Notes under the pieces: model-generated
What the model was told of the DNA's origin: nothing
Seen by the model: the letters and a program-made list of their open reading frames with translations, nothing else
Databases searched by the model: none
Virus record (IMG/VR): IMGVR_UViG_3300042924_005659
Length of the DNA: 64,000 nucleotides
Direction: 5' to 3' (one strand)
DNA from: a virus
Made by a program: the position numbers and the translations under genes
Part shown: positions 3,205 to 60,355 of the stretch, one piece after another
Layout of the letters: the number at the start of each line of letters is the position of its first letter
How positions within the stretch are numbered: the stretch's first letter is position 1

Positions 3205-3609
3205 TCAGTCTTTGGCTTTGGTGGGCTTGTTATCCATCATACTTAGTAGTTTGTCTACAAGCAAGTAGCCGCCTACTCCTCCACCGCCTGCTCCCACCAA
3301 ACCTCCCAAAGCGCCATAAGTAGCAACATCCTTTACTCTATTGCTGATATCGGTGCTTAGTCCGTACAACGCATTGGTAGTACCTGCTCCAAGAGCTGCT
3401 CCATTCCACGCACCCAAAAGAGCGCCTACGTCAGCACCTAGGCCTTTTGCAGCGCCTCTAAGTATCCTGGACATGCGAACCTTGTCCTCAGGAGCAGTCA
3501 GGCCGTGAGCCAACGCACTGATGGTAGTGGCTATCAAAGCCTGCTTGGTAAAGTCGCTTTGAGTCTGGTGTGCCTTAAGGGCCTGAAGATTGTTCGCCAG
3601 TTTAATCAT
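3205..3609 (-). CDS. Gly/Ala-rich glycine-zipper membrane-like protein with MIKLANNL leader
   Basis: 134 aa. GxxxG hydrophobic segments; KLA and KQA motifs. Confidence 0.75.
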   Translation of the reverse strand: MIKLANNLQALKAHQTQSDFTKQALIATTISALAHGLTAPEDKVRMSRILRGAAKGLGADVGALLGAWNGAALGAGTTNALYGLSTDISNRVKDVATYGALGGLVGAGGGGVGGYLLVDKLLSMMDNKPTKAKD

Positions 3610-4133
3610 TCTTCTTGTGCGTACATGTCCGGATTGAGGTAGGGCATCTCCAATCCGCTTGCTGCGCCTCCGCCTGCTCCAAGCAGAGCTCCAAGGCCAA
3701 GACCGATCAGGGCCTTATCTACTCCGGGAGTTCCGCCCTGACCTTCCATAGCATCAAGGCCTAAACCAGCCAGTGCGCCTATTGGAGCTGCTGTGAAGCC
3801 TCCCTTCAATGCGCCCATCAAAGCTCTTCTCAAATAGTTTGGTTTATCAGAACGAGTAATGATGTCTTCGTTTTCGTAACCCGCCAGAGCATTACCTAAG
3901 GCTCCGCCGACACCGCCAATTAAACCGCCTGCTCCTGCACCCAGTAAGCCCGTCGCCAATGCGTTCGGCACATTGCCAGACGAACCAGCTGCGCCAAGCA
4001 GAGCACCATATAGGCCTCCAGCTAAAGCTCCGCCGCCACCGCCAACTAGGGCGCCTCTAGCAAGACGCTTTTTATAATCTACTTCGCGAGCAGCCTGTTT
4101 AAATGAAGGAACGTAATGAGAGTATGGTGTCAT
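3606..4133 (-). CDS. Glycine-zipper membrane-like protein with MTPYSHY...KQAA leader
   Basis: 175 aa. Several GALxGGxxG helices. Start/stop overlap with its neighbour. Confidence 0.8.
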   Translation of the reverse strand: MTPYSHYVPSFKQAAREVDYKKRLARGALVGGGGGALAGGLYGALLGAAGSSGNVPNALATGLLGAGAGGLIGGVGGALGNALAGYENEDIITRSDKPNYLRRALMGALKGGFTAAPIGALAGLGLDAMEGQGGTPGVDKALIGLGLGALLGAGGGAASGLEMPYLNPDMYAQEE

Positions 4134-4146
4134 GCTTAATATCCTT

Positions 4147-5238
4147 TTATTGAGTTAGAGATGAATTATAGCTATTAGCGTTATTTCTAGCTAATGTGCC
4201 AGCTGGTGGCTTAGGCCCTAGAGTGGAAGTTAGTCCATAGTGCGTAGCAATTGGAGCAAAGTCATCTCCATAATAGTTTCTCATACTGGCATAGAATCGC
4301 GAGTTATTGACGGCGTCTTGCGCAGACTGCACCGCATTAGGAGAATATGCGGCAGTTGGCAATTGTGTCATAGCCTGCTGTACGGTTCCCTGTATAGCTC
4401 CAGGTATGGACTTTAACTGGTTTATGGCGCCGTAGCCCAGAGTCTTGCCTACAGCCCCTATAGGACCAGAGGATAAAACTTTGGCTGCTTCTGTAGCGGC
4501 AGTAAAGGCATTATGCGGTTTAGGACTGCCCATGGAACTGGCGAATCTTGCATCTATGGGATTGCTGCCACCTTGACGATATATGTAGTGGTAGGGGCTG
4601 GAGAGATATTCTTTTCCAGCGTGCAAAACTCCGCCCCAGCCCATCTTGTAGGCCAGTCTATATGCATCTTCAGGAGAGTATCCAGCGTCTAATAAAGACT
4701 GTATGGCCTCGACTTGGTAGTTATTTATATTCTGCACTGCTGAAGCCGCTGCACCAATAGTATCTCCAATTACTTTAGGTACGGTTAAAGCAGCAGCAGG
4801 ACGTGCTACAGTTTTAAATACTTGTCCTGCCCTAGCTGCCGTAGGCAGGGCATAGCGAGCAGCCCCTGTAGGCGCTGCTACAAAGCGAAGAGCATGTGGG
4901 GCTACGGGAGCTGCAAGGGCCAATCCTGCTCCTCCAGCTGCAGCTCCGCTGACTCCCAAAGACGCAGCTGCTGCATCTAACAGAGGGTCTTTATATTGAA
5001 GCTCTAGCTGATTTGGACCTGGTAGCGCGTTGTATACTCGACGTACAGTATCTACCCATGGGGAATCATCAGCATAATCTGAGCCAATACGCCCACCGGT
5101 CCAGTAGTGTGCTGCTCCACTAAATGGCTCTACCAGCTGAGAACCAAATGCCTTTACACCTTCCCATAAAGGATTCTCCTCCGCACGCTTGATGCGGAAG
5201 GAGTGCAAGGCAGAAAGATTGTTGGCCAACTTTATCAT
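4147..5238 (-). CDS. Ala/Gly-rich protein with MIKLANNL leader (putative virion/internal protein)
   Basis: 363 aa. Leader identical to that of 3205..3609; KRA motif. Confidence 0.75.
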   Translation of the reverse strand: MIKLANNLSALHSFRIKRAEENPLWEGVKAFGSQLVEPFSGAAHYWTGGRIGSDYADDSPWVDTVRRVYNALPGPNQLELQYKDPLLDAAAASLGVSGAAAGGAGLALAAPVAPHALRFVAAPTGAARYALPTAARAGQVFKTVARPAAALTVPKVIGDTIGAAASAVQNINNYQVEAIQSLLDAGYSPEDAYRLAYKMGWGGVLHAGKEYLSSPYHYIYRQGGSNPIDARFASSMGSPKPHNAFTAATEAAKVLSSGPIGAVGKTLGYGAINQLKSIPGAIQGTVQQAMTQLPTAAYSPNAVQSAQDAVNNSRFYASMRNYYGDDFAPIATHYGLTSTLGPKPPAGTLARNNANSYNSSLTQ

Positions 5239-5884: not shown

Positions 5885-8800
5885 TTACTTACCTAGTATC
5901 TTTACGGTATCTGTTGGGCTTAGCTCACCGCGATTAAACGCCTTTATGACATCGTCCTTGGTTTGGAAGACCTTGACGTTGTCTTTATCGGGAGCCTTTT
6001 TGCTAGCTAAATAAAGACCGTATAGGAATTCGTTCTTTATGAACGGCTGCGCTTGGAACGTAGCAGCGGACATTAGGTTACGGCTAGGCAGCATGCGCTC
6101 GTAGGCTTCGGCTACTGCCTTCTCAGAACTAGGTACGTGCAATCGCATCTGGTCTCCGTCGAAGTCTGCGTTAAAGCCTACGACTACGGAAGGAGACAAC
6201 CTTAGCGTACTGCCAGTGGTAAGCTTGGGGCGTGCTGCCATGAAGTTGTACTTGTGCAGAACCGGAGCACGAGTGATCATCACCGGGCGGCGTTCCATCT
6301 CCGAAAGCAAGGCTCGACGGGCCGTAGGAGTACGGCTCTCCACCTGCTTCATGGCTTCCAAGGGATTGGCTCCAGAAGCCACCAATGCCCTTACTACATA
6401 TGGACGGAAGACAGAGAAAGCCATGTCTTCCGGTACTCCAACGTGGTCCATGTCCAGCGAAGGATCAGGGGTAATTACAGCATTTCCTACGCCTTCTACC
6501 GTGGAGCTCAGTACCTTGCGCTGGAACATCGAGAACTTGGGATTGCTGCCCAGAATATGCCGAATAAGGCCGTTGACGTTCTTCTGCTTCAGCTTAGCGC
6601 TGGCAGGATCGGCAAGACCTACGGTTGCCTTTAACATCTTATACAGAGCCAGGCGCTCCTTGCCTGTAGCTTCCTGGCCCAGCTCAGACTGCAGCTCCTT
6701 CAAGTTGCCGTTCATGCTGAACAGCTCCTTGTATAGGTAGTTCATATCCGAGACCATCTGCATGTTGCCGGTATCGGTAATGGGTCTAAAGCGAGGAGGC
6801 AGCACAGGCATGTCTTCCCAGAGGAAGTCACTAGGCTTCAGCTTGCGCTTCTGCATTCCTTCCAGATATGAAAGCTTGGAAATAGCATTGCTGCGCTTCT
6901 GGCCCTTCGATGCCGTGATCTCCCGACGAGTCTGGTCTATCTCGTTGGGAATATCCAGAGTTGCAAGCTTGGCCTCCAAGCCCTGCATGCCCTTGATGCC
7001 CTTTACGGTCTCGCCTGAAACGACGGACTCAAAGTCCTTCTTGGTCAAACCAGTCAAGGAACGAACCACGTCCTCCATGACTGGATTGACCATCTTGGCA
7101 GCAAGAGGAAAGTGTCCGAATGAAGACTGATTGACTCCGAAGATCTTCTCGTCGAAGAAGCCGCCGTCATAGGCCTTACCGGTTTTGAAGTCTATATCTC
7201 GGAAGTCCTTTACTTCTCCTCCAGACATCTTCTTAACATCGGAGCCACTCATGCCATAGATGTTTACAGCTCCGCCTTGGCGTTCGACATTTACTCCAGA
7301 GCCCTTGAGCTGAGCTACGAACTTGTCCCAAACAAATGGAACGTTGACCGAAGGAACTGGAGTTCCGGTCTTGATAGCTCTCCAGTACTCGTCGTTCTTC
7401 TGGCCACGGATAAGTCGGGCGTCCTTCAAGACCTCGATTGCACCGTGGGCCAGAATGGCATTCATGTCAGAGATCGAGATGCGCTTGGCGCCTTCTTCTC
7501 CGCCCTTGACTGGAGCTTCTTCGGTGCTGTAGCCGCCGGTGTCACGAGCGCTCAGCTTCTTCTCTGCCTGGTGGTGCAGGTTCATGAAGTAACGAGTGCC
7601 GGTAAACACATTGTCTACATTTCGGTTCAACCGAGGATCATAGATCGTCTCGGTATCCGCCATGCCGGCTTTCTTCAGCTCTCGCTGAGCGAAATCGATG
7701 AAGCTCTCGTCCATGAACGCCGGAAGTTTGACGGGCTGCCCGTTCTTAGCGGCAATCTTGCCCATTGCGGCTTCCACGGCCTGCACAGGGTTAACGCGAG
7801 TGACAAGAGCCAGGGGATTATAGATGACTTCATACGAGTTACCGTCCTTATCCTTTGGCATGTCTGCGTCAGGAATAATAGTGGAAATTACACCCTTGTC
7901 TCCGTATCGACCTACCAGCTTGTCTCCAACGGACATCGGCTTGTAGGACTTTACCGCTACTTGGTATCCACTGCGAGTCTTGGTTACGTTGGTAACTACT
8001 CCTGGCTGGCTGTGGTCCCAGGTCTGAGCACGGTTGGTATAGCTTGGCCGAGCCTTCTTCATCAGGCCGAACGTATCAGACTTACGCTCACCTACGCCTA
8101 GGATAATAGGATCGCCAGGATTAAGCACGGTGCCCGGCTTGACCACACCTGTTGCGGAGTCAAGGTTCTTGAGCTGATCCTTGTTGTACTGGCCGGGAAA
8201 TAGAGATACAAACTTGCTAAAGTTGGCTTCGTAGTCGTCCTTGCCGTCATAGCCGACGGTGTACATGTGCTCGGAGGACATCTTCTTTGCGGCGGATTCA
8301 GACATTACCACGCCGTCTTCGAAGTTGGAGCCTCCAAGCTCCGGATCTCCCCATACCGTATAGGCCACCTTCAGATTGCGACCCATGGCCATTCTGCCCT
8401 GATCGTCAGAATAGTTGGACTTAGCCAACAGCTGTCCGGGCTTGATCTGGTCTCCGATCTTGACCATCGGAGTGTTATGGATATAGGTCTTGCGATTGAA
8501 CGGAAAGTTGTTGTACAGCTCGTAGCGACGCTTTTCCTTGCCGTGCTTTACTTCGACGTAGTCCGGAGTTACCGCAGTAACCAAACCGTTGCCGAATTCC
8601 GGCTCCGACTGTACTGCGCCAAGGTGAGGAACCAGTTGCTCCTCAAACGACTTGCCTTCCGGATCATTGGGATCTAATCCCTGTACCAGGGGCGCTTCGG
8701 CCTCCTGGACAGGTAACGCTTGGGTAAAGTACTTGGAGCCCATGAGCAGTCGGCCACCCTTGATTCCAGAAATACCTGGAACAAGATTGGAGTTGACGTT

Positions 8801-10807
8801 GAACATGTTGCTGTAGGCAGGCACCTCGTACTCGACCTCTGCAGGATCGACATAGGAAATGCGGCCACGCACCATGGCTCTTACAGGATCTCCGGTCTTT
8901 GCCGAGCGTGCGAGTTCTCCTGGAAATGCGACTATAGAGTCGGTCAGTGTACGGGCAGCCACAGGTTCCATGGCTCCTGTCTTGACCTTGCGCATCTTGG
9001 AGTAAATCTGACCATCAGCTCCCTTGTAGGAGCCTACGGTAAGTCTAAGGTCGATACCTACTTTATCGGATTCCGGAGTACGTACCGGATCCAGGAAGCC
9101 TAAGTGAGAGGGCTGCACCGAACGGCTATCTACTGGAATGCCGTGTGCAGCGGAGCCTATGCCGCCTTCTCCGGTGCGGATAACTCTCATGTTCTGGTCC
9201 AGGATCTCCATCGGATTGACTTCCTCGATGGGAGCTCCCAGTCCGGAACCAAGCAATACGCCATTCAGTACAGGAGTGAATACTCCGTTCTTGAAGGCAT
9301 TGAGATTACCCTTGTTGGTAGCCTTGAACATGGCGGTGCGTAGAGTTGCACCTGCGTCCTTTTCAATGCGCTCTGAGAAGAAGTCCTCTGCGCTCAGGAA
9401 CTTCTGATAGGCCAAGGAGTCACGGTCGTCCTGATCCTCAAAACCCTTTTGAGCATTTAGAATCTTCTGAGATGCCCGCAGCAGAGTATTGCCGGTAATA
9501 CGGCCGAAGTCCTCTTCATTCAGCTGAAGCTGTTCGTAATCTGCGGCATCAAAGCCGGCAGTTTGCGGTGCTGCCTGCTTTTCGGTTAATAGGTCATTGA
9601 TGTCAGAGGCGACCTTTACACCTACTGCCAACCGGAATCCACCGCGAGGCTTGGCCTCCAACAGGAGACTTCTGCGCAACTGCTCAAGTTCCGGGCACTC
9701 GATATCGATGCAGTACTCTCCGTTGCTTGGAGGCAGCACTCCACGGATCTGATAGGTGAATCTACGGCCGGAGCCACAGGTGGCCTCAAAGCTCTTCTTG
9801 AATACTTTCTTCAGCTGACGAATCTCGTCACTAGTGATTACTATCAGCCGGCCCTTGTCGTTGACTGGGGCAATTGCCGGAGATTTATCGGAATCTCGCA
9901 GGGCATAGAACACTCCGTCAACCAGACCGGCAGGTACGGTTATGTACCCGGTGTCTTCTATCTTGAGCGTTCCGCGAATAGGCACATCTGCCTTTTTGCG
10001 AAGGGCTCCGGCATAGCTCAGAGTGCGTCGGGTAACCTCAGGATCAAGCTCCGTGGAATTCAACGCATCTTTGATTCCCTGGTAGATAGTATTGTCATCT
10101 AGTCCCTTGGAGGGATTGTTAGTAAGACGCTCATATATACGTGCTGCGTCATAGCTGGAGCCGAGCTTATTGGATTCCAGCAATTCCTTGCCCCAGGTTC
10201 TCTCCAGCACCGAATCATCGACGCCTAAAGCCTTGAACATGGGATAAGCTGGAGCAACGGACTGGCCTATCTCAGCAACAAACTTTCCCGTATCAGGCAT
10301 GAATGCAACGCGAAAACCACGACCCTTGCCGGGCATGGTGTTGAAGTGCGCCTCAAACTCACCGGACTTTCTCTTGCGGACATATGGTCCTGCAAGAAGA
10401 CGAGACTGATTAGCAACAGTGTATTCGCTGCCAGCATTTATGAAAGTACCACGGTCCGTAAGATAGGGAACACGAGCCAAGGTTATGGATCTGTCCGTCT
10501 GGTCCATTACCTGACCAGTGGCATTGTCCTTCATTACAAGCCTGCCTCTAAGAGGAACAAAGAGGCTTTGATTTTGCATCAAGGCCTCTTGCTGTTCTTT
10601 TAGAGAATACGGCTCTTCTCTGCCGTAATGAAGATCCGCAGCCTCAATTGTGTAGCGGGCATTCTGAAGCGGGAACTTCTTCGCCACCGCATTACGCACT
10701 CCATCAAATATGTTTTTACGAGTAGTGCGATAATCGCTAAAACCCCTCAGCACCGGGGCAAGAGGGGTTACGAGTTGGTTTAAGTCGTCTGCGCCGGGCG
10801 TAGGCAT
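5885..10807 (-). CDS. rpoBC: Multisubunit-type RNA polymerase: beta fused to the N-terminal half of beta'
   Basis: beta motifs RTPESDKVG, RLLMGS, NFEDGVVMSE, GDKLVGRYGDKGV, YFMNLHH. beta' motifs GFFDEKIFG, PVLPPRFRP, RAPVLH and catalytic NADFDGD. Confidence 0.97.
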   Translation of the reverse strand: MPTPGADDLNQLVTPLAPVLRGFSDYRTTRKNIFDGVRNAVAKKFPLQNARYTIEAADLHYGREEPYSLKEQQEALMQNQSLFVPLRGRLVMKDNATGQVMDQTDRSITLARVPYLTDRGTFINAGSEYTVANQSRLLAGPYVRKRKSGEFEAHFNTMPGKGRGFRVAFMPDTGKFVAEIGQSVAPAYPMFKALGVDDSVLERTWGKELLESNKLGSSYDAARIYERLTNNPSKGLDDNTIYQGIKDALNSTELDPEVTRRTLSYAGALRKKADVPIRGTLKIEDTGYITVPAGLVDGVFYALRDSDKSPAIAPVNDKGRLIVITSDEIRQLKKVFKKSFEATCGSGRRFTYQIRGVLPPSNGEYCIDIECPELEQLRRSLLLEAKPRGGFRLAVGVKVASDINDLLTEKQAAPQTAGFDAADYEQLQLNEEDFGRITGNTLLRASQKILNAQKGFEDQDDRDSLAYQKFLSAEDFFSERIEKDAGATLRTAMFKATNKGNLNAFKNGVFTPVLNGVLLGSGLGAPIEEVNPMEILDQNMRVIRTGEGGIGSAAHGIPVDSRSVQPSHLGFLDPVRTPESDKVGIDLRLTVGSYKGADGQIYSKMRKVKTGAMEPVAARTLTDSIVAFPGELARSAKTGDPVRAMVRGRISYVDPAEVEYEVPAYSNMFNVNSNLVPGISGIKGGRLLMGSKYFTQALPVQEAEAPLVQGLDPNDPEGKSFEEQLVPHLGAVQSEPEFGNGLVTAVTPDYVEVKHGKEKRRYELYNNFPFNRKTYIHNTPMVKIGDQIKPGQLLAKSNYSDDQGRMAMGRNLKVAYTVWGDPELGGSNFEDGVVMSESAAKKMSSEHMYTVGYDGKDDYEANFSKFVSLFPGQYNKDQLKNLDSATGVVKPGTVLNPGDPIILGVGERKSDTFGLMKKARPSYTNRAQTWDHSQPGVVTNVTKTRSGYQVAVKSYKPMSVGDKLVGRYGDKGVISTIIPDADMPKDKDGNSYEVIYNPLALVTRVNPVQAVEAAMGKIAAKNGQPVKLPAFMDESFIDFAQRELKKAGMADTETIYDPRLNRNVDNVFTGTRYFMNLHHQAEKKLSARDTGGYSTEEAPVKGGEEGAKRISISDMNAILAHGAIEVLKDARLIRGQKNDEYWRAIKTGTPVPSVNVPFVWDKFVAQLKGSGVNVERQGGAVNIYGMSGSDVKKMSGGEVKDFRDIDFKTGKAYDGGFFDEKIFGVNQSSFGHFPLAAKMVNPVMEDVVRSLTGLTKKDFESVVSGETVKGIKGMQGLEAKLATLDIPNEIDQTRREITASKGQKRSNAISKLSYLEGMQKRKLKPSDFLWEDMPVLPPRFRPITDTGNMQMVSDMNYLYKELFSMNGNLKELQSELGQEATGKERLALYKMLKATVGLADPASAKLKQKNVNGLIRHILGSNPKFSMFQRKVLSSTVEGVGNAVITPDPSLDMDHVGVPEDMAFSVFRPYVVRALVASGANPLEAMKQVESRTPTARRALLSEMERRPVMITRAPVLHKYNFMAARPKLTTGSTLRLSPSVVVGFNADFDGDQMRLHVPSSEKAVAEAYERMLPSRNLMSAATFQAQPFIKNEFLYGLYLASKKAPDKDNVKVFQTKDDVIKAFNRGELSPTDTVKILGK

Positions 10808-11835: not shown

Positions 11836-12366
11836 TTAAATTCCTAGTTTGCTTGAAAGCGAGTCTCTTAGTGCAGCTAGAAGATCTTGCTGCTCAGCCT
11901 TATTTAGCCGGCTTTCGTATCTACGCTCAAAAGCCATTGGAGTGTTGCTTGTGTTCAAGGCCGATAGAGCATCTGCAGCATCTACAAACTGAGAGAGGTA
12001 AGGACTACGCGCAGGAGAAAGATATCCTTCTCCGGTTCGCATGGGGAAATCTGCTCTTAGTTTTGCTAAGTCAGCCTTAGTACCCTCGATATTAGCCTTC
12101 TGATCGGCTAGAGAATAATCTCCCAGGGCCTTGGCTCCAGCGCCCAATCCAGCACCTACTCCTCCGCCGATAAGAGCACCCTTAAGCTTAGATTCTCCGC
12201 GCAATGCGTTAATCAAAGCACCAACGCCAGCACCGGCAAGACCTCCGCCACCTGCATAGATTGCGTAGTCCTTAAGCAAGCTGTCTGTTGGGTTAAGTGC
12301 AGCAAGAGCATCCTGCACAGTAATGTTGGATTGCTTGAGAGTCGGCAGATAATGGGAGTAGGTCAT
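11836..12366 (-). CDS. Glycine-zipper protein with MTYSHY...KQS leader
   Basis: 176 aa. AGGGGLAGAGVG and GGGVGAGLG helices. Confidence 0.8.
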   Translation of the reverse strand: MTYSHYLPTLKQSNITVQDALAALNPTDSLLKDYAIYAGGGGLAGAGVGALINALRGESKLKGALIGGGVGAGLGAGAKALGDYSLADQKANIEGTKADLAKLRADFPMRTGEGYLSPARSPYLSQFVDAADALSALNTSNTPMAFERRYESRLNKAEQQDLLAALRDSLSSKLGI

Positions 12367-13447: not shown

Positions 13448-14668
13448 TCAAAAGGACAGCTTGCCTAGATTGATCAATGTACCTAGGGCTGCTCCTGTGC
13501 CTTGCATTAGTTTCTGCTCATTTGGCTTAAGATTAACAAACATACCTATGCCTTTGGCTGCGGCGGTTCCAGCAACAGCGCCTGCACCAGCTCCAATAGC
13601 AGCATGAGCGATATCCCTCACCGTAAACCAGGGCTTGTTGGATTCCCGGCTTGCACGAAGCATAAGTCCAGCAGCCTGGCCGTAGTCGACATACCCTGAG
13701 CGCATCTGTTCGCTGACCACGTCGGCTAAGTGAGTCCTAGCTATCTGCATGTCCATAGGTATATAGGAACCATTCTTAGTGGAACCCTTACCTTCAGCAA
13801 CAAGAGCATTAGACCCGGTCGGAATTATACCTGAGCGCCTGCGAGAATCTTGCTGCATATTTTGCTTGTCTGCTTCGGTATAGTTTTCGTTCTTCGGCAA
13901 AGACATTCTGGAGATGTCTGCCATGGTAGAAGGAGCGTTAACAAGCCACGGTGCACTCATACCGCCCAAAGCAGCCAAAGCCATCATGGCCTTTTCCTTG
14001 CCTCTAAAACGCTCCGGGAACATGTACTTAAGTACAGGAATTGCAGCTAAACCTAAACCTGTAAGCCCTACACCTGAAACAAGGTTTCCAAATCGAGTCT
14101 GTGCAGCAGGAGTAAAGCTGCCCTCGTTGTACCAAAGCCCTGGGCTATAACCCAATGCCCGTGATAGATCCGATGTCAGTGCGGCATTCTTATATGCAAA
14201 TGGAGTTGGGCTCATCTTTTTACGCATATAGTCTGCCGTGGCGGGATACAGCTTTTCAGCAGCAGTGCCGCCGACAGGCGTTTGTTGTTTGCTCTTTTCT
14301 CCCACCTGTTTTGTTGCTTTGGTAAGGTCTGCCTTCATGCTGCCAAACAAAGAGGGAAGTTTGACATAGCTGCCATCGCCACCTCCAGAAATGTTAGGCA
14401 TTCCAAATCCAGCGCCAATGCTAGTCGCAGCAGCAGACTCTTTGCTAGGAGCCTGACCTAGCTCTAAGTTGCCTATTACGTTCTTAGGAACGTGAATCTT
14501 GAAGTTGGTGGCGCTATGCGTCAAACCTACAATTCCATCCTTCTCAGAGTCTACGTAGAACTCTTTTGGAGCCTTGAGCACCAAATCGTGAATCAAGTCA
14601 TGCTTCTGAGAGTACTGTTTGGCATCAGAAAACTGCTTTGCTCTTTTAAGGTCTTTAAGTACGCTCAT
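13448..14668 (-). CDS. Modular membrane-like protein
   Basis: 406 aa. Soluble N-terminal domain, then KESA, KNAA and hydrophobic hairpins. Confidence 0.75.
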   Translation of the reverse strand: MSVLKDLKRAKQFSDAKQYSQKHDLIHDLVLKAPKEFYVDSEKDGIVGLTHSATNFKIHVPKNVIGNLELGQAPSKESAAATSIGAGFGMPNISGGGDGSYVKLPSLFGSMKADLTKATKQVGEKSKQQTPVGGTAAEKLYPATADYMRKKMSPTPFAYKNAALTSDLSRALGYSPGLWYNEGSFTPAAQTRFGNLVSGVGLTGLGLAAIPVLKYMFPERFRGKEKAMMALAALGGMSAPWLVNAPSTMADISRMSLPKNENYTEADKQNMQQDSRRRSGIIPTGSNALVAEGKGSTKNGSYIPMDMQIARTHLADVVSEQMRSGYVDYGQAAGLMLRASRESNKPWFTVRDIAHAAIGAGAGAVAGTAAAKGIGMFVNLKPNEQKLMQGTGAALGTLINLGKLSF

Positions 14669-16635
14669 GGAGAGGTCTCCTCGGCAGGCTGCATGTTTTT
14701 GTACACTTCGCTCATTATTGGTTGTAGCTCAGCTAGCGTCTCCGTAAACGGAACCTGCCCAGAAGACGGATTTTGCTGAGCGGCGCTCAAGCGACGAGCC
14801 CCTTCGAGCAACTCCTGATATCCGCTAGGAGCTTGACCTGTTTGCCGGTAGCTGTCATGCATCGCAGACAACATCACGTTAAGGTTGGCCAGCTGAGCAG
14901 TAGCTCCAACTACCGCTTCCGGATTACCTCCGACCAAGCTTGCGACTGGAGACTGCATAAGGTGACGGCCTAGTGGAGAGGACTCTACTTGTGAAGGATC
15001 TTGCTGCAGAGCACTCAAAGCATCGTACAGCCTAGGATCCTGCATAGCTGCCCCAGGAAGGTTCAACATTCCGCCAGTCAGTTCGGGGGCCAGGCTGCCC
15101 ATTCGGAACGTAAGGCTCTGCTGCATTTTCTGTCTAGCCTCAGGAGAAGCTTTTGCTAAAGCCTCTTGAACGTTTGGATCCTGCATCGGGTCCTTGCCTG
15201 TCGCAAACGCCTCTGCAAATGGAGCCCAGGCAGTTCCTGCCGCTATTTCGTCCTGGTTTAAGTCCTCTGAGTAACTGCGAGCACCTAAAGCTCGGAAGGG
15301 ATTAAATGAAGTGCCTTCCGCAAGTCCAGACACGTAAGAGTATGAAGGATTGGCGGAGTTAAACGCATCTGTAACTTCAGTTCTTATTTGATTCAAAGCC
15401 GCGGGATTCTCTTGCACTAAAGCTTGATCCTCAGGAGACAAAGAAGCTACCCGATTAGCTACAGCCTGATCTATAGCTGCAGAACCTTGCTGAGCCAATC
15501 CGGGCATAAAGGCACTCGCCCCTATTCCGTATGGGTTTAGCGAAGTAGGATCAAATGAAAAGCCTCCTGCAGCAAGGGACTCGGCAAAACGTCTAGCAGA
15601 GGCAGGAGTGCCCGCTAGCTCTGGATTAACTTGATTGAAAGACTGCACATCTCTTATAGCATTGGCGTAGTTTCTTGCTGCTCCTTGAGTAGCCAGGTGT
15701 GCTCCTAATTGACTAAACGGCAACGCCCAACTAGATCCAGCAGTAGCGGCGCCAGTTAGCAAGGGAACCGGATTTATTCCAGATACGGCATAATTTAAAC
15801 TTGATGGAACCGACCTACCTGCAAATCTAACAACAGGACTTGCAGCAGTCTGCATTACCGGCTGAAATCCTTGACTCAAAGCTTGGCCGGTTGCTCTAAG
15901 AGCACTGGGCGCTACGCTCTTAGCGCCTTGTACTCCAGCCTGGCCAGTTGCTCTAAGAGCACTGGGCGCTACGCTCTTAGCGCCTTGTACTCCAGCCTGA
16001 GCAGCAGCGCTTCCTCCTGCCGTTCCAGCCATCATCAAAAAACTTGGAGCAGCCTCAAGCGCGTAGCTGGAATAATCCAAAAGAGGATCGTTGTACTGCA
16101 GCTCAAAATTTCCACCCCAACGATTTGCAACTCGCTTTCCAGCATCTGCAAGCATGCTGCCATACACGGCATCAGACTTAGCCTTATCGGCAGATGCCTG
16201 GTTGAATCCCTTCGTAGCGACGTCGTAGCCATACATAAACGGAGCTGTAGGCATGACAGGAGATCTAGCCAGGTCTCCAATAAAGGCTCCTGTTGCACTA
16301 GGACTTGGAGCAACAGCGTTAGGGTTTACTGGAGCAGCACCTCTAGCTTGTGCCTCGTAAAGTCTAAATCGATTTCTTAAATCAATCTGCTCCTGAGACA
16401 TCCCTGTTCGTTCAGAGCCTTTATAACCCCAACCTTTAGTGCTGTAAGTGTAATCCCCGTAAGGAAAAGCACGAGCATACTCAGACTCCAAAGCCTTACC
16501 TTGAGCGGCAAGCTGAGGATCTATATTAGGCCGGTTGTAATAACCAGGCGGCTGAAACGCCTTGCCTGCGGTCTCCGTAGCGGAGGTGTACCCAGGAGCC
16601 TGAGCTTTCTTTATGTAGGAACTGTACGGAGTCAT
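14665..16635 (-). CDS. Large Ala/Gln-rich protein with MTPYSSYIKKA leader (putative virion internal/ejection protein)
   Basis: 656 aa. Shared leader; internal 19-aa duplication. Confidence 0.75.
   Translation of the reverse strand: MTPYSSYIKKAQAPGYTSATETAGKAFQPPGYYNRPNIDPQLAAQGKALESEYARAFPYGDYTYSTKGWGYKGSERTGMSQEQIDLRNRFRLYEAQARGAAPVNPNAVAPSPSATGAFIGDLARSPVMPTAPFMYGYDVATKGFNQASADKAKSDAVYGSMLADAGKRVANRWGGNFELQYNDPLLDYSSYALEAAPSFLMMAGTAGGSAAAQAGVQGAKSVAPSALRATGQAGVQGAKSVAPSALRATGQALSQGFQPVMQTAASPVVRFAGRSVPSSLNYAVSGINPVPLLTGAATAGSSWALPFSQLGAHLATQGAARNYANAIRDVQSFNQVNPELAGTPASARRFAESLAAGGFSFDPTSLNPYGIGASAFMPGLAQQGSAAIDQAVANRVASLSPEDQALVQENPAALNQIRTEVTDAFNSANPSYSYVSGLAEGTSFNPFRALGARSYSEDLNQDEIAAGTAWAPFAEAFATGKDPMQDPNVQEALAKASPEARQKMQQSLTFRMGSLAPELTGGMLNLPGAAMQDPRLYDALSALQQDPSQVESSPLGRHLMQSPVASLVGGNPEAVVGATAQLANLNVMLSAMHDSYRQTGQAPSGYQELLEGARRLSAAQQNPSSGQVPFTETLAELQPIMSEVYKNMQPAEETSP
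15884..15999. repeat. 57-bp in-frame tandem duplication (2 copies, 1 mismatch)
   Basis: The unit starting at 15884 recurs at 15941 and encodes AGVQGAKSVAPSALRATGQ. Confidence 0.95.
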
Positions 16636-57176: not shown

Positions 57177-60065
57177 TCACTTCTTGTACTTGCCTAGAAC
57201 AGGATAGGTAGCGACGTCCTCGTCTGTCAAGGGTTCGCTCCAACGAATGCAGACCTCCGGATCAATGCCAAGTACCAAGTCATTGTTCGGAATCCTGCAT
57301 CTTTCGCACATTGCCATTCTCATGACCTCCATGGTCTCCTCAATCTGCTCTACGGGGCAGCTGACGATAACCTGATCGTGCACGCTCATGAGAACCCTGT
57401 ACTGAAGGTGAGGACGCTCGGCCTCACGGATCATGTATAGGTTTACCAGGGCCAACGACATTAAGTCGCCTACCGTGCCCTGAATCGGTGCATTCATCGC
57501 CTGACGCTTCTGATGAGCCAGCAGCTCGTTGTCCTCGGTATGCTCGAACCGACGACGTCGGCCGAATCCGTTTTCGACATATCCCTGGCTGCCGACCTTT
57601 TCCTGCTGCGAAATCAGCCAATGTGCAAGCTGAGGAAAAGTCGCTTTAAACTTGTCCACAGCCTCTTGAGCTTCTTCCAGCGTAATGTTGACTCCTTCCA
57701 TATATACCGCTTCTTTGATGGCCGCTCCGCCACGACCGTACGCAATTCCGAAGGTGATAGTTTTCGCAATGGTTCTGTACTTTGTGTTTCCGGTTTCCTT
57801 CAGCCAATCTTTCTTGCCTTTGGCATAGTCCGCCGGTGGCTTATCCAGGCGGAACATTTCTATGGCGACCTCGGAGTGGAAGTCCGATCCGGGATCGCTA
57901 AGCTTCTGCTGCATGTTGGTGTCTCCGGAGAGCCACGCCATGACGAAAAGCTCGGCCTGCACCCAGTCGCAATCCAGCAAGGCCCAACCAGGATCCGCTC
58001 TGAAGCAGGAACGGATTGAAGGTATCTGCTGCTGCTTGTCCTTGAAGGCCTTGCTAACAAGGTCCTCCGCGGTCTTTGGCAGCTGAGCCATGTTGGGATC
58101 CGAGTGTCCGTAACGCCCAGTCTCGACGGTCTGCCTAATGCGAGTATGGACTCGGCCATCACACCACAGCTTAGGCAGAATACCGCCATCCACCGAGTGA
58201 CCGCCATCGGGCAGCTCCACGAACTCTCCCGTGAATGTCTTCACGGTCTGAGCTACCGCAGTGTACAGCAGCATGGTGTTAACCAGCTCGTTATCTTTAT
58301 GAATTAGCAGCAAGCTGGTAAGAACAGAACGATCTGTAGACGGAGTATACGACGCCAGTTTTTCCGGCTTTTCCAGAAGCTTGGACCACTTTGCGTCATT
58401 TGTAGCCTTGATGGGCTCAAACCTACATAGAGTGGCAGTTGGTGGAAAGCTGGGCTTGCTGCCTTGCTTTACCCAGCCGAACAAAGCCGCTGCCTTCTGC
58501 ACCGGAGAATCGGGATTGAAATCCGGCCAGTTGAGCAGACCTCGGAGCTTTTCCGTAAGTTCAGTGCGCTTAGCAGTGTACTTGTGAGAAAGCAGCTCCA
58601 ACCGGTCTCTGTCAACGTTCATGCCAGTAGTCTCGATCTCAAGAATCGGCAGAGTGGCAGGCATGACCACGGTCTCGAACAGCGTCCGCACTCTCTCGTT
58701 CTCATGGCGCATCATTTCTGCATATTGAATCAGGAATATGCGGAAAGTGGCATCTGCGTCCTGAGCAGCATACGGAAACAGCACGTCGTCCGGAATTCCT
58801 CCGTAGCCGTGCTCGTCGACGTCGTACTTGCTTTCCTTGATCCAGGCATTCAAGGCAAGTTCATACCTGCCCATCTGAGTGTGCCTGGCTGTGTATACCT
58901 CCAGACCCTGTGCCCAGTTCTCGTCCAGCAAGTGCCCAGCCAAGGCAGTATCCCAGCCTGTGAGTGCAGGTAGGGTGACGTTTACTCCGTTGTGCTGAAG
59001 CCACGGCAAGTCGGCTCGTATGAAGTGGCCTATTAGCTTTGTCTTGCCGTTTTCCACAAATTGCTTTATCAGACTCCAGGCCTGCTGCTTGTTCTGGCCA
59101 AGAGGACTGGGCTGCATGTTGGCGTGATTGAATACCGCTACCAGCGCCTTGCCTGGAGCCCAGCTGAACTGAATGCACCGCAGTTCGCCGCTGAGGTGGT
59201 TTCCGCCGCCCCATTCGCAGTCCACGGAAACCCAGCCTGAGTACTCCTGCTCAATTGTCTGCAGGTGTTGCTGCAACTGGTCCAGCGAGTACACGCAGGT
59301 GTAGGAGATATGAGTGTCGTCCTTTACGGTTACCTGTCCGCTAGCCAGTTCGTTGGCTATCCGAGTCATGTCCAGGGCTATTGCTGCACGTACTTCAGGC
59401 ATGTGGATAATGGCGGAGAAGTCAGTCATGATGGCCGTCTTTATGCCCAACGGACTTTCCTCTGCCGACATCGTACGGTTCTTGTACTTCTCAACCGTAG
59501 CTCTAGCGCCCAGGACGGCCTTCAGCACTTTTGCACCCAGCAGGATTACAAGTTCTGGCTTGGCCAGCTCAAGCTCCTTCTTGAACGCAGCGGAGTAGTC
59601 CTCGACCAGATCTTTTGGGATCGCCGTCTTTTTGCCGTCCACATAGTGTTTGACGTAAGTGGTGTAGTAGCAAGCAGATACTGGAAATCCTGTCTTAGCG
59701 ACCAGATCCTCGAATTCGGAAACCCACTCTCCGCAGTACAGCCGAGAGTTGTCGTTCTCACGAGAGTTTGGCCAGCAACCTACCAGCATTATTCTGCAAG
59801 GAGCAGGACCCAGCTCAGGAGTTGGCAGCAAATGCGCATTTGTCTTGCCCTGAGGAGCAGTAGTATTGAACACAGACTTGAGGTGAATGCCAGGCAGCAG
59901 CTGAATAGGAGAGCTGATTCCATTTACGTTCAGGCAGATCCTGCTTCTACTCATGAGCATCTCTTGAAAGGAGTGCTCGATTGTCTGACTGTATTGCAAG
60001 GCTCTGGCCACGGCCATAGAGCCGTACTTCTGTACGTTCTCTTCCACAGTTGTTTGTATTGTCAT
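57177..60065 (-). CDS. polA: Family A DNA polymerase with N-terminal UDG-like and 3'-5' exonuclease domains
   Basis: UDG-like IMLVGCWP...ELELAKPELVILLG; exo VDCE, ADL, YAAQDAD; Pol TGRY..SDPNMAQLP, DWVQAE, AKTITFGIAYG, NAPIQGT, VHDQ. Confidence 0.95.
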   Translation of the reverse strand: MTIQTTVEENVQKYGSMAVARALQYSQTIEHSFQEMLMSRSRICLNVNGISSPIQLLPGIHLKSVFNTTAPQGKTNAHLLPTPELGPAPCRIMLVGCWPNSRENDNSRLYCGEWVSEFEDLVAKTGFPVSACYYTTYVKHYVDGKKTAIPKDLVEDYSAAFKKELELAKPELVILLGAKVLKAVLGARATVEKYKNRTMSAEESPLGIKTAIMTDFSAIIHMPEVRAAIALDMTRIANELASGQVTVKDDTHISYTCVYSLDQLQQHLQTIEQEYSGWVSVDCEWGGGNHLSGELRCIQFSWAPGKALVAVFNHANMQPSPLGQNKQQAWSLIKQFVENGKTKLIGHFIRADLPWLQHNGVNVTLPALTGWDTALAGHLLDENWAQGLEVYTARHTQMGRYELALNAWIKESKYDVDEHGYGGIPDDVLFPYAAQDADATFRIFLIQYAEMMRHENERVRTLFETVVMPATLPILEIETTGMNVDRDRLELLSHKYTAKRTELTEKLRGLLNWPDFNPDSPVQKAAALFGWVKQGSKPSFPPTATLCRFEPIKATNDAKWSKLLEKPEKLASYTPSTDRSVLTSLLLIHKDNELVNTMLLYTAVAQTVKTFTGEFVELPDGGHSVDGGILPKLWCDGRVHTRIRQTVETGRYGHSDPNMAQLPKTAEDLVSKAFKDKQQQIPSIRSCFRADPGWALLDCDWVQAELFVMAWLSGDTNMQQKLSDPGSDFHSEVAIEMFRLDKPPADYAKGKKDWLKETGNTKYRTIAKTITFGIAYGRGGAAIKEAVYMEGVNITLEEAQEAVDKFKATFPQLAHWLISQQEKVGSQGYVENGFGRRRRFEHTEDNELLAHQKRQAMNAPIQGTVGDLMSLALVNLYMIREAERPHLQYRVLMSVHDQVIVSCPVEQIEETMEVMRMAMCERCRIPNNDLVLGIDPEVCIRWSEPLTDEDVATYPVLGKYKK

Positions 60066-60067
60066 TT

Positions 60068-60355
60068 TTAGTCCGGCTCGATGGTGCAGGTGAGGCTTAA
60101 GGACACTAGCTGATCTTTTAGCAGTTCCGCCCGTTCTTTGTGCGTTACTTCGACGATAGAAAAACCATTTTTGTCTACCTCTGTGGTCTTTACTAGAGCC
60201 ATGTGAGGGTCCATTCTGAGAATCTGCATTAGACATTTGATTACGTGTATGTACGTGTTTACGTCATCGTTGTGGACCAACACCTTCCACATCTTCAACG
60301 GCTTGGTTTCGGGAGGAGTGTTGACAGTCGTAGTATTTGAATTTGATTGTTCCAT
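60068..60355 (-). CDS. clpS: ClpS-like N-degron adaptor
   Basis: WKVLVHNDDVNTY..VI..L, EVD..G..IV...HKERAEL, TIEP. Confidence 0.88.
   Translation of the reverse strand: MEQSNSNTTTVNTPPETKPLKMWKVLVHNDDVNTYIHVIKCLMQILRMDPHMALVKTTEVDKNGFSIVEVTHKERAELLKDQLVSLSLTCTIEPD

Follow-up and report, generated by a model that had tools for sequence, protein, structure and literature searches.

The stretch of DNA considered here (the window, 64,000 nucleotides (nt) long) belongs to the virus record IMGVR_UViG_3300042924_005659, which measures 174,569 bp and is complete according to CheckV. The window clearly comes from a phage, and it encodes, together with a family A DNA polymerase, a ribonucleotide reductase and tail-fibre-like proteins, the object of this work, that is, a multisubunit RNA polymerase (RNAP) whose beta part is interrupted by a domain related to the 2H phosphoesterases, in particular to the Swiss Army Knife 2H phosphoesterase domain (2H-SAK, Pfam PF22547). 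The RNAP gene is a reading frame of 4923 nt; in its product, P0001, Pfam recognizes Rpb2_3 and Rpb2_6 (beta) and then Rpb1_1 and Rpb1_2 (beta') in one chain, which means that P0001 represents a complete beta subunit fused to the N-terminal half of beta'; the sequence NADFDGD is present. Its nearest named relatives, at ~30% identity, are gp206 of Salmonella phage Arash and the proteins of the Vibrio phages D69, D148 and D181. The features of this gene are the following, each with the evidence that defines it.

5885-10807, minus strand: fusion of RNAP beta with the N-terminal half of beta' (P0001, 1640 amino acids (aa)); open reading frame and translation, Pfam, beta and beta' matches in the Protein Data Bank (PDB).
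10019-10051, minus strand: conserved lobe helix E253-LDPEVTRRTL-263, just ahead of the insertion; flanks, motif spacing, helix 256-263 of the AlphaFold2 (AF2) model.
9512-10012, minus strand: whole insertion (residues 266-432, 167 aa), made of an N-linker, a 2H-like domain and a long C-linker; spacing compared with insert-free relatives.
9989-9997, minus strand: N-linker motif K271-K272-A273 (K-x-[AS]); 30 of 32 clade members.
9581-9991, minus strand: degenerate 2H-SAK-type 2H phosphoesterase-fold domain (residues 273-409); clade profile boundaries, phmmer, hhalign, AF2, VIA.
9842-9850, minus strand: former catalytic motif 1, R320-L321-I322 (H-x-T/S in active relatives); alignments, column counts.
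9755-9778, minus strand: clade-specific motif C344-G-S-G-R348-R349-F-T351 (then Y), largely invariant; column counts.
9626-9634, minus strand: former catalytic motif 2, R392-L393-A394 (H-x-T/S in active relatives); alignments, column counts.
9572-9580, minus strand: C-linker motif K410-Q411-A412 (K-x-[AS]-A); 26 of 32 clade members, 29 of 32 with slack.
9464-9508, minus strand: resumption of the beta homology, F434-GRITGNTLLRASQK-448, corresponding to about E. coli beta 420-437; profile against enterobacterial RpoB, phmmer against the PDB.

The homology to beta is split into two alignable blocks, as an earlier, sequence-only reading of this DNA had noticed. The beta subunits of the PDB and enterobacterial RpoB align to residues 34-203 of P0001 (about 51-222 of E. 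coli beta), and the homology starts again at residues ~431-437 (about E. coli 415-420), reaching about E. coli 459; this numbering was obtained by offset from the enterobacterial RpoB alignment and is approximate. The spacing between the motifs LDPEVT and D.RDSL is exactly 39 residues in seven insert-free relatives, 206 in P0001 and 224 in the deeper branch of its clade, so that the insertion amounts to 167 residues (266-432). Since the Pfam lobe domain Rpb2_2 matches residues 427-467 weakly with its C-terminal end, the inserted segment can be placed in the beta2 lobe, which in this phage family, without the insert, has only ~62 residues between conserved blocks vs ~200 in E. coli. An alignment of three full-length proteins with MAFFT had put the insert at ~190-310, a misplacement that was overruled by the motif spacing. 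The clade profile delimits the folded domain as residues 273-409, nearly identical to the extent of ~271-412 that had been claimed for the insert; the bracketing tripeptides lie exactly where they had been mapped (K271-K272-A273 at nt 9997-9989 and K410-Q411-A412 at nt 9580-9572, minus strand), and the strings GYITVPAGLVDGVFYAL, GRLIVIT, CIDIECPELEQLRRSL and FRLAVGV, quoted as the pattern of the domain, are all found in P0001.

The insert is not an intein, in agreement with the same reading. P0001 gives no Hint or LAGLIDADG match in Pfam, although the inteins that relatives carry elsewhere in the protein are detected, and the residues of intein junctions (Cys, Ser or Thr at the N-junction; His-Asn and a nucleophile at the C-junction) are absent from the two borders, ...SYAG/ALRKKADVP... 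and ...LNEED/FGRITG.... Two clade members, P0020 and P0029, are ~400 aa longer and contain an intein with a LAGLIDADG endonuclease (PF14890, PF14528), away from the 2H site.

Residues 273-409 are a domain of the Pfam 2H-SAK lineage and of the 2H fold, which has two pseudo-symmetric alpha+beta lobes. A phmmer search with residues 190-435 against 1.84 billion representative proteins retrieved small proteins matching residues 265-398, namely P0098 (E-value 2.4e-6), P0099 (7.9e-6) and P0104 (1.7e-4), all of which match PF22547 (P0104 just below the gathering score); the segments PHITAIT...FHITVAV of P0099 correspond to GRLIVIT...FRLAVGV of P0001. The comparison by hhalign of a profile of the "dead" clade, that of P0001, with a profile of "active" 2H domains gave a probability of 99.3% (E-value 1.7e-20) and paired R320 and R392 with the two catalytic histidines. 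The resemblance to phage 2H phosphoesterases, which had been proposed from the sequence, is well beyond chance by phmmer, hhalign and the VIA structure search reported below. Among the Pfam models the insert gave only a chance-level match to cytochrome c-550 (E-value 0.15), and among the PHROGs no family; the Acb1 family (PF23474) did not match it either, and the histidine pair is missing as well. A feature search of the ESM Atlas returned no usable match. No second 2H enzyme was found in the six-frame open reading frames of the 174.6-kb genome with PF22547 (to E-value 1), PF13563, PF23474, PF02834 and our own profile. The CARDB repeat proteins P0094-P0096 were rejected as homologues: their low whole-protein E-value (1e-11) is the sum of many weak repeat matches, which fall on P0001 residues ~286-325, and the profile was rebuilt after their exclusion.

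The predicted structures are in agreement with this assignment. The AF2 model of residues 260-420 has a mean predicted local distance difference test (pLDDT) of 78.7, and its strands and helices follow one another as in a minimal 2H domain. In an exhaustive VIA alignment of this model against 48,161 chains, 2H proteins occupy all of the first 21 places, with Z scores of 6.7-4.2 over 94-121 aligned residues, before a drop to 2.6 at the following place; among them are mouse hepatitis virus (MHV) ns2, CNPase, Deinococcus CPDase, phage Acb1 (7t27, Z 6.3), LigT-like proteins and Usb1, as well as plant CPDase, rotavirus VP3, the poxvirus cGAMP phosphodiesterase (PDE), AKAP18 and ASCC1. In the viral structure library BFVD, Foldseek finds mostly 2H proteins, with weak scores; Acb1 and a phage protein named "Swiss Army Knife 2H" are among them. 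The model of residues 1-530 (pLDDT 86.5), which resembles the bacterial beta structures of the PDB in their N-terminal part (E-values down to 1e-16), shows the usual N-terminal sheet domain of beta and a lobe cut down to about five helices (188-263), after which come the 2H-like domain and then, with helix 439-454, the resumption of beta; the linkers 269-273 and 405-418 have pLDDT values below 50.

The columns corresponding to the two catalytic H-x-[ST] motifs were counted in eight active RNAP inserts and in 36 domain sequences of the clade, the latter consisting of the close clade and five sequences of the deep branch. At the first position of motif 1 (R320) the active inserts have His in 8/8, the close clade has R20 K6 Q2 N2 H1 and the deep branch F5; the Thr/Ser position (I322), S or T in the active inserts, is V, I, A or T in the close clade and E in the deep branch. 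At motif 2 the first position (R392) is again His in 8/8 active inserts, with R31 in the close clade and K5 in the deep branch, and the Thr/Ser position (A394) is S or T in the active inserts, A, V, S, T, I or H in the close clade and I in the deep branch. Histidine thus survives in one of the 36 clade sequences at motif 1 and in none at motif 2, where the first position is always basic. Since both H-x-[ST] motifs are lost, the domain is inactive by the defining criterion of the superfamily, and its predicted catalytic death agrees with these counts as far as the canonical mechanism is concerned; judging from the missing catalytic residues, it probably no longer hydrolyses phosphodiesters. The statement that Arg replaces both catalytic histidines is true of P0001 itself (R320 and R392), but in the clade the Arg of motif 1 is not conserved.

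The loss of the catalytic residues was not accompanied by a decay of the domain. Its core (residues 277-400) has a mean identity to P0001 of 75.8% in the close clade, vs 75.6% for the N-terminal part of beta, 81.7% for the beta core and 82.4% for beta', and being as conserved as the rest of beta it is maintained by selection, a conservation that shows a function still in force; the mean identity of the N- and C-linkers is 43% and 35%, respectively. Six residues, G279, E328, L374, R378, P387 and F391, are invariant in the active inserts, in the close clade and in the deep branch. The motif CGSGRRFTY is instead a property of the clade, the positions CGSGRRFT being variable in the active relatives: in the 36 clade sequences G345 and R348 are invariant, position 349 is R35/K1 and position 351 is T35/V1, while position 347 is always Gly in the close clade but S or N in the deep branch.

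Concerning the distribution of the insert, a word-based search with residues 150-520 returned 91 homologous polymerases, 34 of which (P0002-P0035, 93-40% identical over these residues) carry the same insert; the insert-free relatives include Arash and D69. Eight more distant RNAPs, i.e., P0036, P0038, P0039, P0044, P0067, P0084, P0087 and P0101 (the last from the phmmer search and the other seven from the set of 91 homologues), harbor an intact 2H-SAK domain (PF22547) with both H-x-[ST] motifs. Because these related fused RNAPs hold an intact 2H-SAK in the lobe, a module of the RNA-end-healing type appears to be embedded in the polymerase. The two kinds of insert do not occupy the same place: the active domain precedes the ELDPEVT helix (site A), whereas the dead domain of the P0001 clade follows it (site B). 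Upstream of the 2H domain, some RNAPs with active inserts have weak, sub-threshold HAD/LNS2-like matches, and DUF5661 and a borderline SET match were seen in P0044 and P0036, respectively. An intact LigT/Acb1-like 2H domain (PF13563, with HCTI twice) was found at site B in P0080 (L008:5272-8043; GCA_029288695.1). This protein is a beta N-terminal fragment with a LAGLIDADG intein, whose gene stops right after the 2H domain, and what remains of beta (Rpb2_3) lies downstream in separate small genes. The gene for P0084 (ENA ERZ1426817) starts directly with the 2H-SAK domain, and an HNH endonuclease gene lies between it and a probable beta N-terminal fragment; on this contig the gene itself is divided where the module begins.

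Both H-x-T motifs are intact in P0099 and in the C-terminal domain of P0098, while P0104 has lost part of both. P0098 (JGI 3300042691) is a stand-alone protein with two 2H-SAK domains in tandem, the one dead (FRIP) and the other active (HIS/HIT), and is encoded 6 kb upstream of a gene for a fused RNAP of 2313 aa; the contigs of P0099 and P0104, only ~1.3 kb long, are too short for an informative gene context. In the tree of the RNAP core the dead clade is monophyletic (0.996), as is the active site-A clade (0.955), and insert-free lineages separate the two via weakly supported nodes. The tree of the domain joins P0099 to both clades, dead and active, in one group (0.989), in which the node that would tell a derivation of the dead copy from the active RNAP-embedded copy from one out of a stand-alone gene has a support of only 0.15. 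The trees would be explained about equally well by two separate insertions and by a single one that was later relocated.

The comparison with known systems helps to define what is peculiar to this domain. With the PF22547 2H-SAK proteins it shares homology (99.3% in hhalign), the order of the secondary structure elements and the six invariant residues, and it differs from them in lacking both H-x-[ST] motifs, in being missed by the Pfam model and in having its own CGSGRRFTY motif. The active RNAP-embedded 2H-SAK domains likewise belong to polymerases of this family and to their beta lobe, but lie before rather than after the ELDPEVT helix, and the weakly detected HAD-like neighbor of some of them is missing in P0001. 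Insertions in the lobe of bacterial beta consist of sandwich-barrel-hybrid or BBM2 repeats, and that of E. coli, SI1, is also called beta-i4. Like SI1, the domain of P0001 is a dispensable-looking extra beta2-lobe domain, joined by linkers, which one lineage has and its close relatives lack; unlike SI1, it is a degenerate enzyme fold, inserted just before the helix corresponding to about E. coli 420-437, and the VIA search identifies its fold as 2H and not as sandwich-barrel-hybrid or BBM2. An ordinary lineage-specific insertion of beta had been named as the finding that would overturn the 2H proposal: the insert does belong to the lineage-specific insertions of the lobe, but its fold is that of the 2H proteins.

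Among the 2H proteins, the viral phosphodiesterases directed against immune signals (Acb1, MHV ns2, rotavirus VP3 and the poxvirus cGAMP PDE) have the same minimal 2H fold of ~140 aa and are the best structural neighbors (Z 6.7-4.9); they are, however, free or C-terminal and active, with both His motifs, whereas the domain of P0001 is embedded in a polymerase, without catalytic residues or a family match. The central domain of AKAP18/AKAP7 and a 2H-fold protein of the trypanosome mitoribosome (6hiw_DQ), both among the structural matches, exemplify the use of the 2H fold for binding or structure, but they have no evolutionary link to the domain of P0001 beyond the superfamily; AKAP18 keeps its H-x-T motifs and binds AMP. 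As regards fusions, in Bacillus jumbo phages an HD phosphohydrolase is fused to the C-terminal part of RNAP beta (Iyer et al. 2021, PMC7824862). This too is a phosphoesterase-type domain joined to a phage multisubunit RNAP, but it is a terminal and active HD domain in a split RNAP lineage, while that of P0001 is an inactivated 2H domain inserted internally in the lobe.

Full-text searches of the literature, and the jumbo-phage and NAD/ADP-ribose (ADPr) surveys of the Aravind group and the mReC RNAP-phage paper, yielded no report of a 2H domain within RNAP beta. Insertions specific to a lineage are common in RNAP beta, those of the lobe included, and enzymes fused to phage RNAPs are known too; as far as we could find, no beta insertion has been described that derives from an enzyme fold belonging to the toolkit of RNA repair and of action against immune signals. 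The interest of this case resides in such an insertion, and in a family that shows a series consisting of stand-alone 2H-SAK proteins (mostly intact), active 2H domains in the lobe and a conserved dead copy at a second site. It offers a tractable case of a polymerase gaining, and then repurposing, a conflict-related enzyme, and a possible link between the phage transcription machinery, perhaps delivered with the virion, and the handling of cyclic-phosphate or cyclic-nucleotide substrates. The dead copy itself probably has a structural or a binding role, which makes the finding moderately surprising in its immediate biology.

On the basis of the homology, the fold, the loss of the catalytic residues, the position of the insertion, its conservation and its flexible linkers, as documented above, we favor, with a confidence slightly above even, the idea that the domain is an exapted, non-catalytic pseudoenzyme of the 2H-SAK type, inserted in the beta lobe and serving to bind a phosphate ligand, a nucleic acid or a partner, or to add bulk. 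According to this idea, a 2H-SAK domain was inserted in the beta lobe of a phage multisubunit RNAP, a lobe much reduced and made of helices only; the ancestral active form, still present in sister RNAPs, would probably have ridden on the polymerase as a phosphodiesterase of RNA ends or cyclic nucleotides. The P0001 clade has lost both H-x-[ST] motifs, and yet purifying selection has kept the domain as strongly as the rest of beta. The domain might now act as a tethered non-catalytic module on the lobe, a wall of the DNA-binding cleft, through a remodelled basic surface (R378 invariant family-wide, R392/K at the position of the second His, R348-R349 newly fixed) on which a nucleic acid, a nucleotide as another ligand with phosphate, or a partner protein might be held; or it might simply add bulk to the lobe. 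It is through R348, R349, R378 and R392/K that we infer a possible binding of a ligand or of RNA.

Several observations weigh against this idea. The PF22547 model itself does not match the insert, or residues 140-520, even at an E-value of 10; Foldseek gave only weak matches in the PDB (best E-value 0.06, TM 0.45), though the list consists mostly of 2H proteins, and VIA Z scores below 8, as all those obtained here, can reflect common arrangements. The AF2 model gives low confidence to the linkers, and hence to the orientation of the domain on the polymerase. Moreover, the first position of motif 1 is unconstrained (R/K/Q/N/H/F), which argues against the retention of a phosphate pocket of the ancestral type, and K398 is lost in the deeper branch. 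Finally, the same data would be accounted for if the domain served the structure alone or just filled space, or if it acted only before being removed by proteolysis.

Different explanations of the domain, then, have to be weighed. It might be a plain prosthesis of the lobe, without any ligand, adding bulk or a docking surface to a lobe of about five helices in the way of E. coli beta SI1, a possibility that we regard as real, even if doubtful. The very small size of the phage lobe without the insert (~62 vs ~200 residues in E. coli), the existence of Arash, D69 and similar insert-free relatives that function without the domain, and the lack of constraint at motif 1 all speak for it, but the conserved or invariant basic residues R348, R349, R378 and R392/K suggest a specific interaction surface, and the C-linker, long and disordered, points to a body on a tether and not to one that is rigidly packed. 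Much less probable is the idea that the domain senses or soaks up immune signalling nucleotides (cyclic oligonucleotides or 2'-5' oligoadenylate), by sequestration or as an allosteric switch of the polymerase. Acb1, the poxvirus cGAMP PDE, MHV ns2 and rotavirus VP3 are among its structural neighbors and a basic residue is retained at the second His position; on the other side, its sequence does not match the Acb1 family, motif 1 is unconstrained, and the role of a sponge for cyclic or 2'-5' signals, which had been suggested from the sequence, is unlikely, one copy per polymerase making a poor sponge, unattractive in its stoichiometry. That the domain is still an enzyme, with a non-canonical mechanism in which Arg or Lys takes the place of His, seems to us highly improbable: the strong conservation of the domain, R392/K and R378 would be accounted for, but the defining His and Thr/Ser are gone at both motifs, motif 1 varies even to Phe, and we know of no 2H enzyme that works without the histidines. 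On the whole, what the sequence-only reading had observed is confirmed, and its interpretation stands in part, that is, for a dead 2H fold within beta, without an intein and with its K-x-A bracket; the sponge is unlikely, and the binding of a ligand is inferred.

A further explanation starts from the bracket itself, which is real and conserved (30 of 32 clade members at 271, 26-29 of 32 at 410) in linkers that are otherwise poorly conserved. According to it, the K-x-[AS] tripeptides would be sites of a maturation protease, and the packaged polymerase would be cut into an N-terminal piece of beta, a free 2H-like domain and the remaining beta/beta'; we consider this unlikely on balance. The Arash homologue, Gp206, was the protein of highest abundance in the mass spectrometry of virions (PMC10585845); the polymerase may be virion-delivered, and the abundance of Gp206 makes a packaged and processed polymerase conceivable. 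The tripeptides at 271 and 410 stand out because the surrounding linkers are variable (35-43% identical) and predicted to be disordered (pLDDT below 50), K-x-A-A-like strings also flank the domain in stand-alone 2H proteins and in active RNAP inserts, and the gene-level breaks of P0084 and P0080 fall exactly beside the 2H module. However, K-x-[AS] is a common tripeptide, with 22 occurrences in P0001, 12 of which are at positions kept in at least 60% of the clade, mostly in core regions. The genome, moreover, gave no match to the Pfam S77 and S78 prohead proteases (PF03420, PF04586), and no protease of this specificity was identified. RNA ligases (PF09414, PF09511), a separate matter, were not found either; two of these four models also missed their positive controls, so that those two nulls are uninformative. 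If processing did occur, the result would be a two-piece beta, the protein-level counterpart of the gene-level splits that relatives show beside the 2H module, and the sites would be of the same type as the leader ends of neighboring genes, putatively for virion cargo.

These leaders belong to three otherwise different Gly/Ala-rich proteins encoded near the RNAP gene (3606-4133, 11836-12366 and 14665-16635, all on the minus strand), which have in common the N-terminal sequence MT(P)YSxY...K[QK][AS], with leaders such as MTPYSHYVPSFKQAA, MTYSHYLPTLKQS and MTPYSSYIKKAQA. Their K-[QK]-[AS] ends can be counted in favor of processing, but the leaders are only partly kept in the relative L007, whose RNAP is ~80-90% identical. 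Two other neighboring genes, 3205-3609 and 4147-5238 (minus strand), encode proteins that begin with MIKLANNL.

As for the rest of the genome, the C-terminal half of beta' (Rpb1_5, in an open frame of 653 aa) is encoded at G000:C1:163992-164879 (minus strand), ~130 kb from the RNAP gene. Within the window, the family A DNA polymerase (1019 aa, 57177-60236, minus strand) carries a domain of the uracil-DNA-glycosylase (UDG) superfamily (PF03167, residues 141-247) N-terminal to its 3'-5' exonuclease domain.

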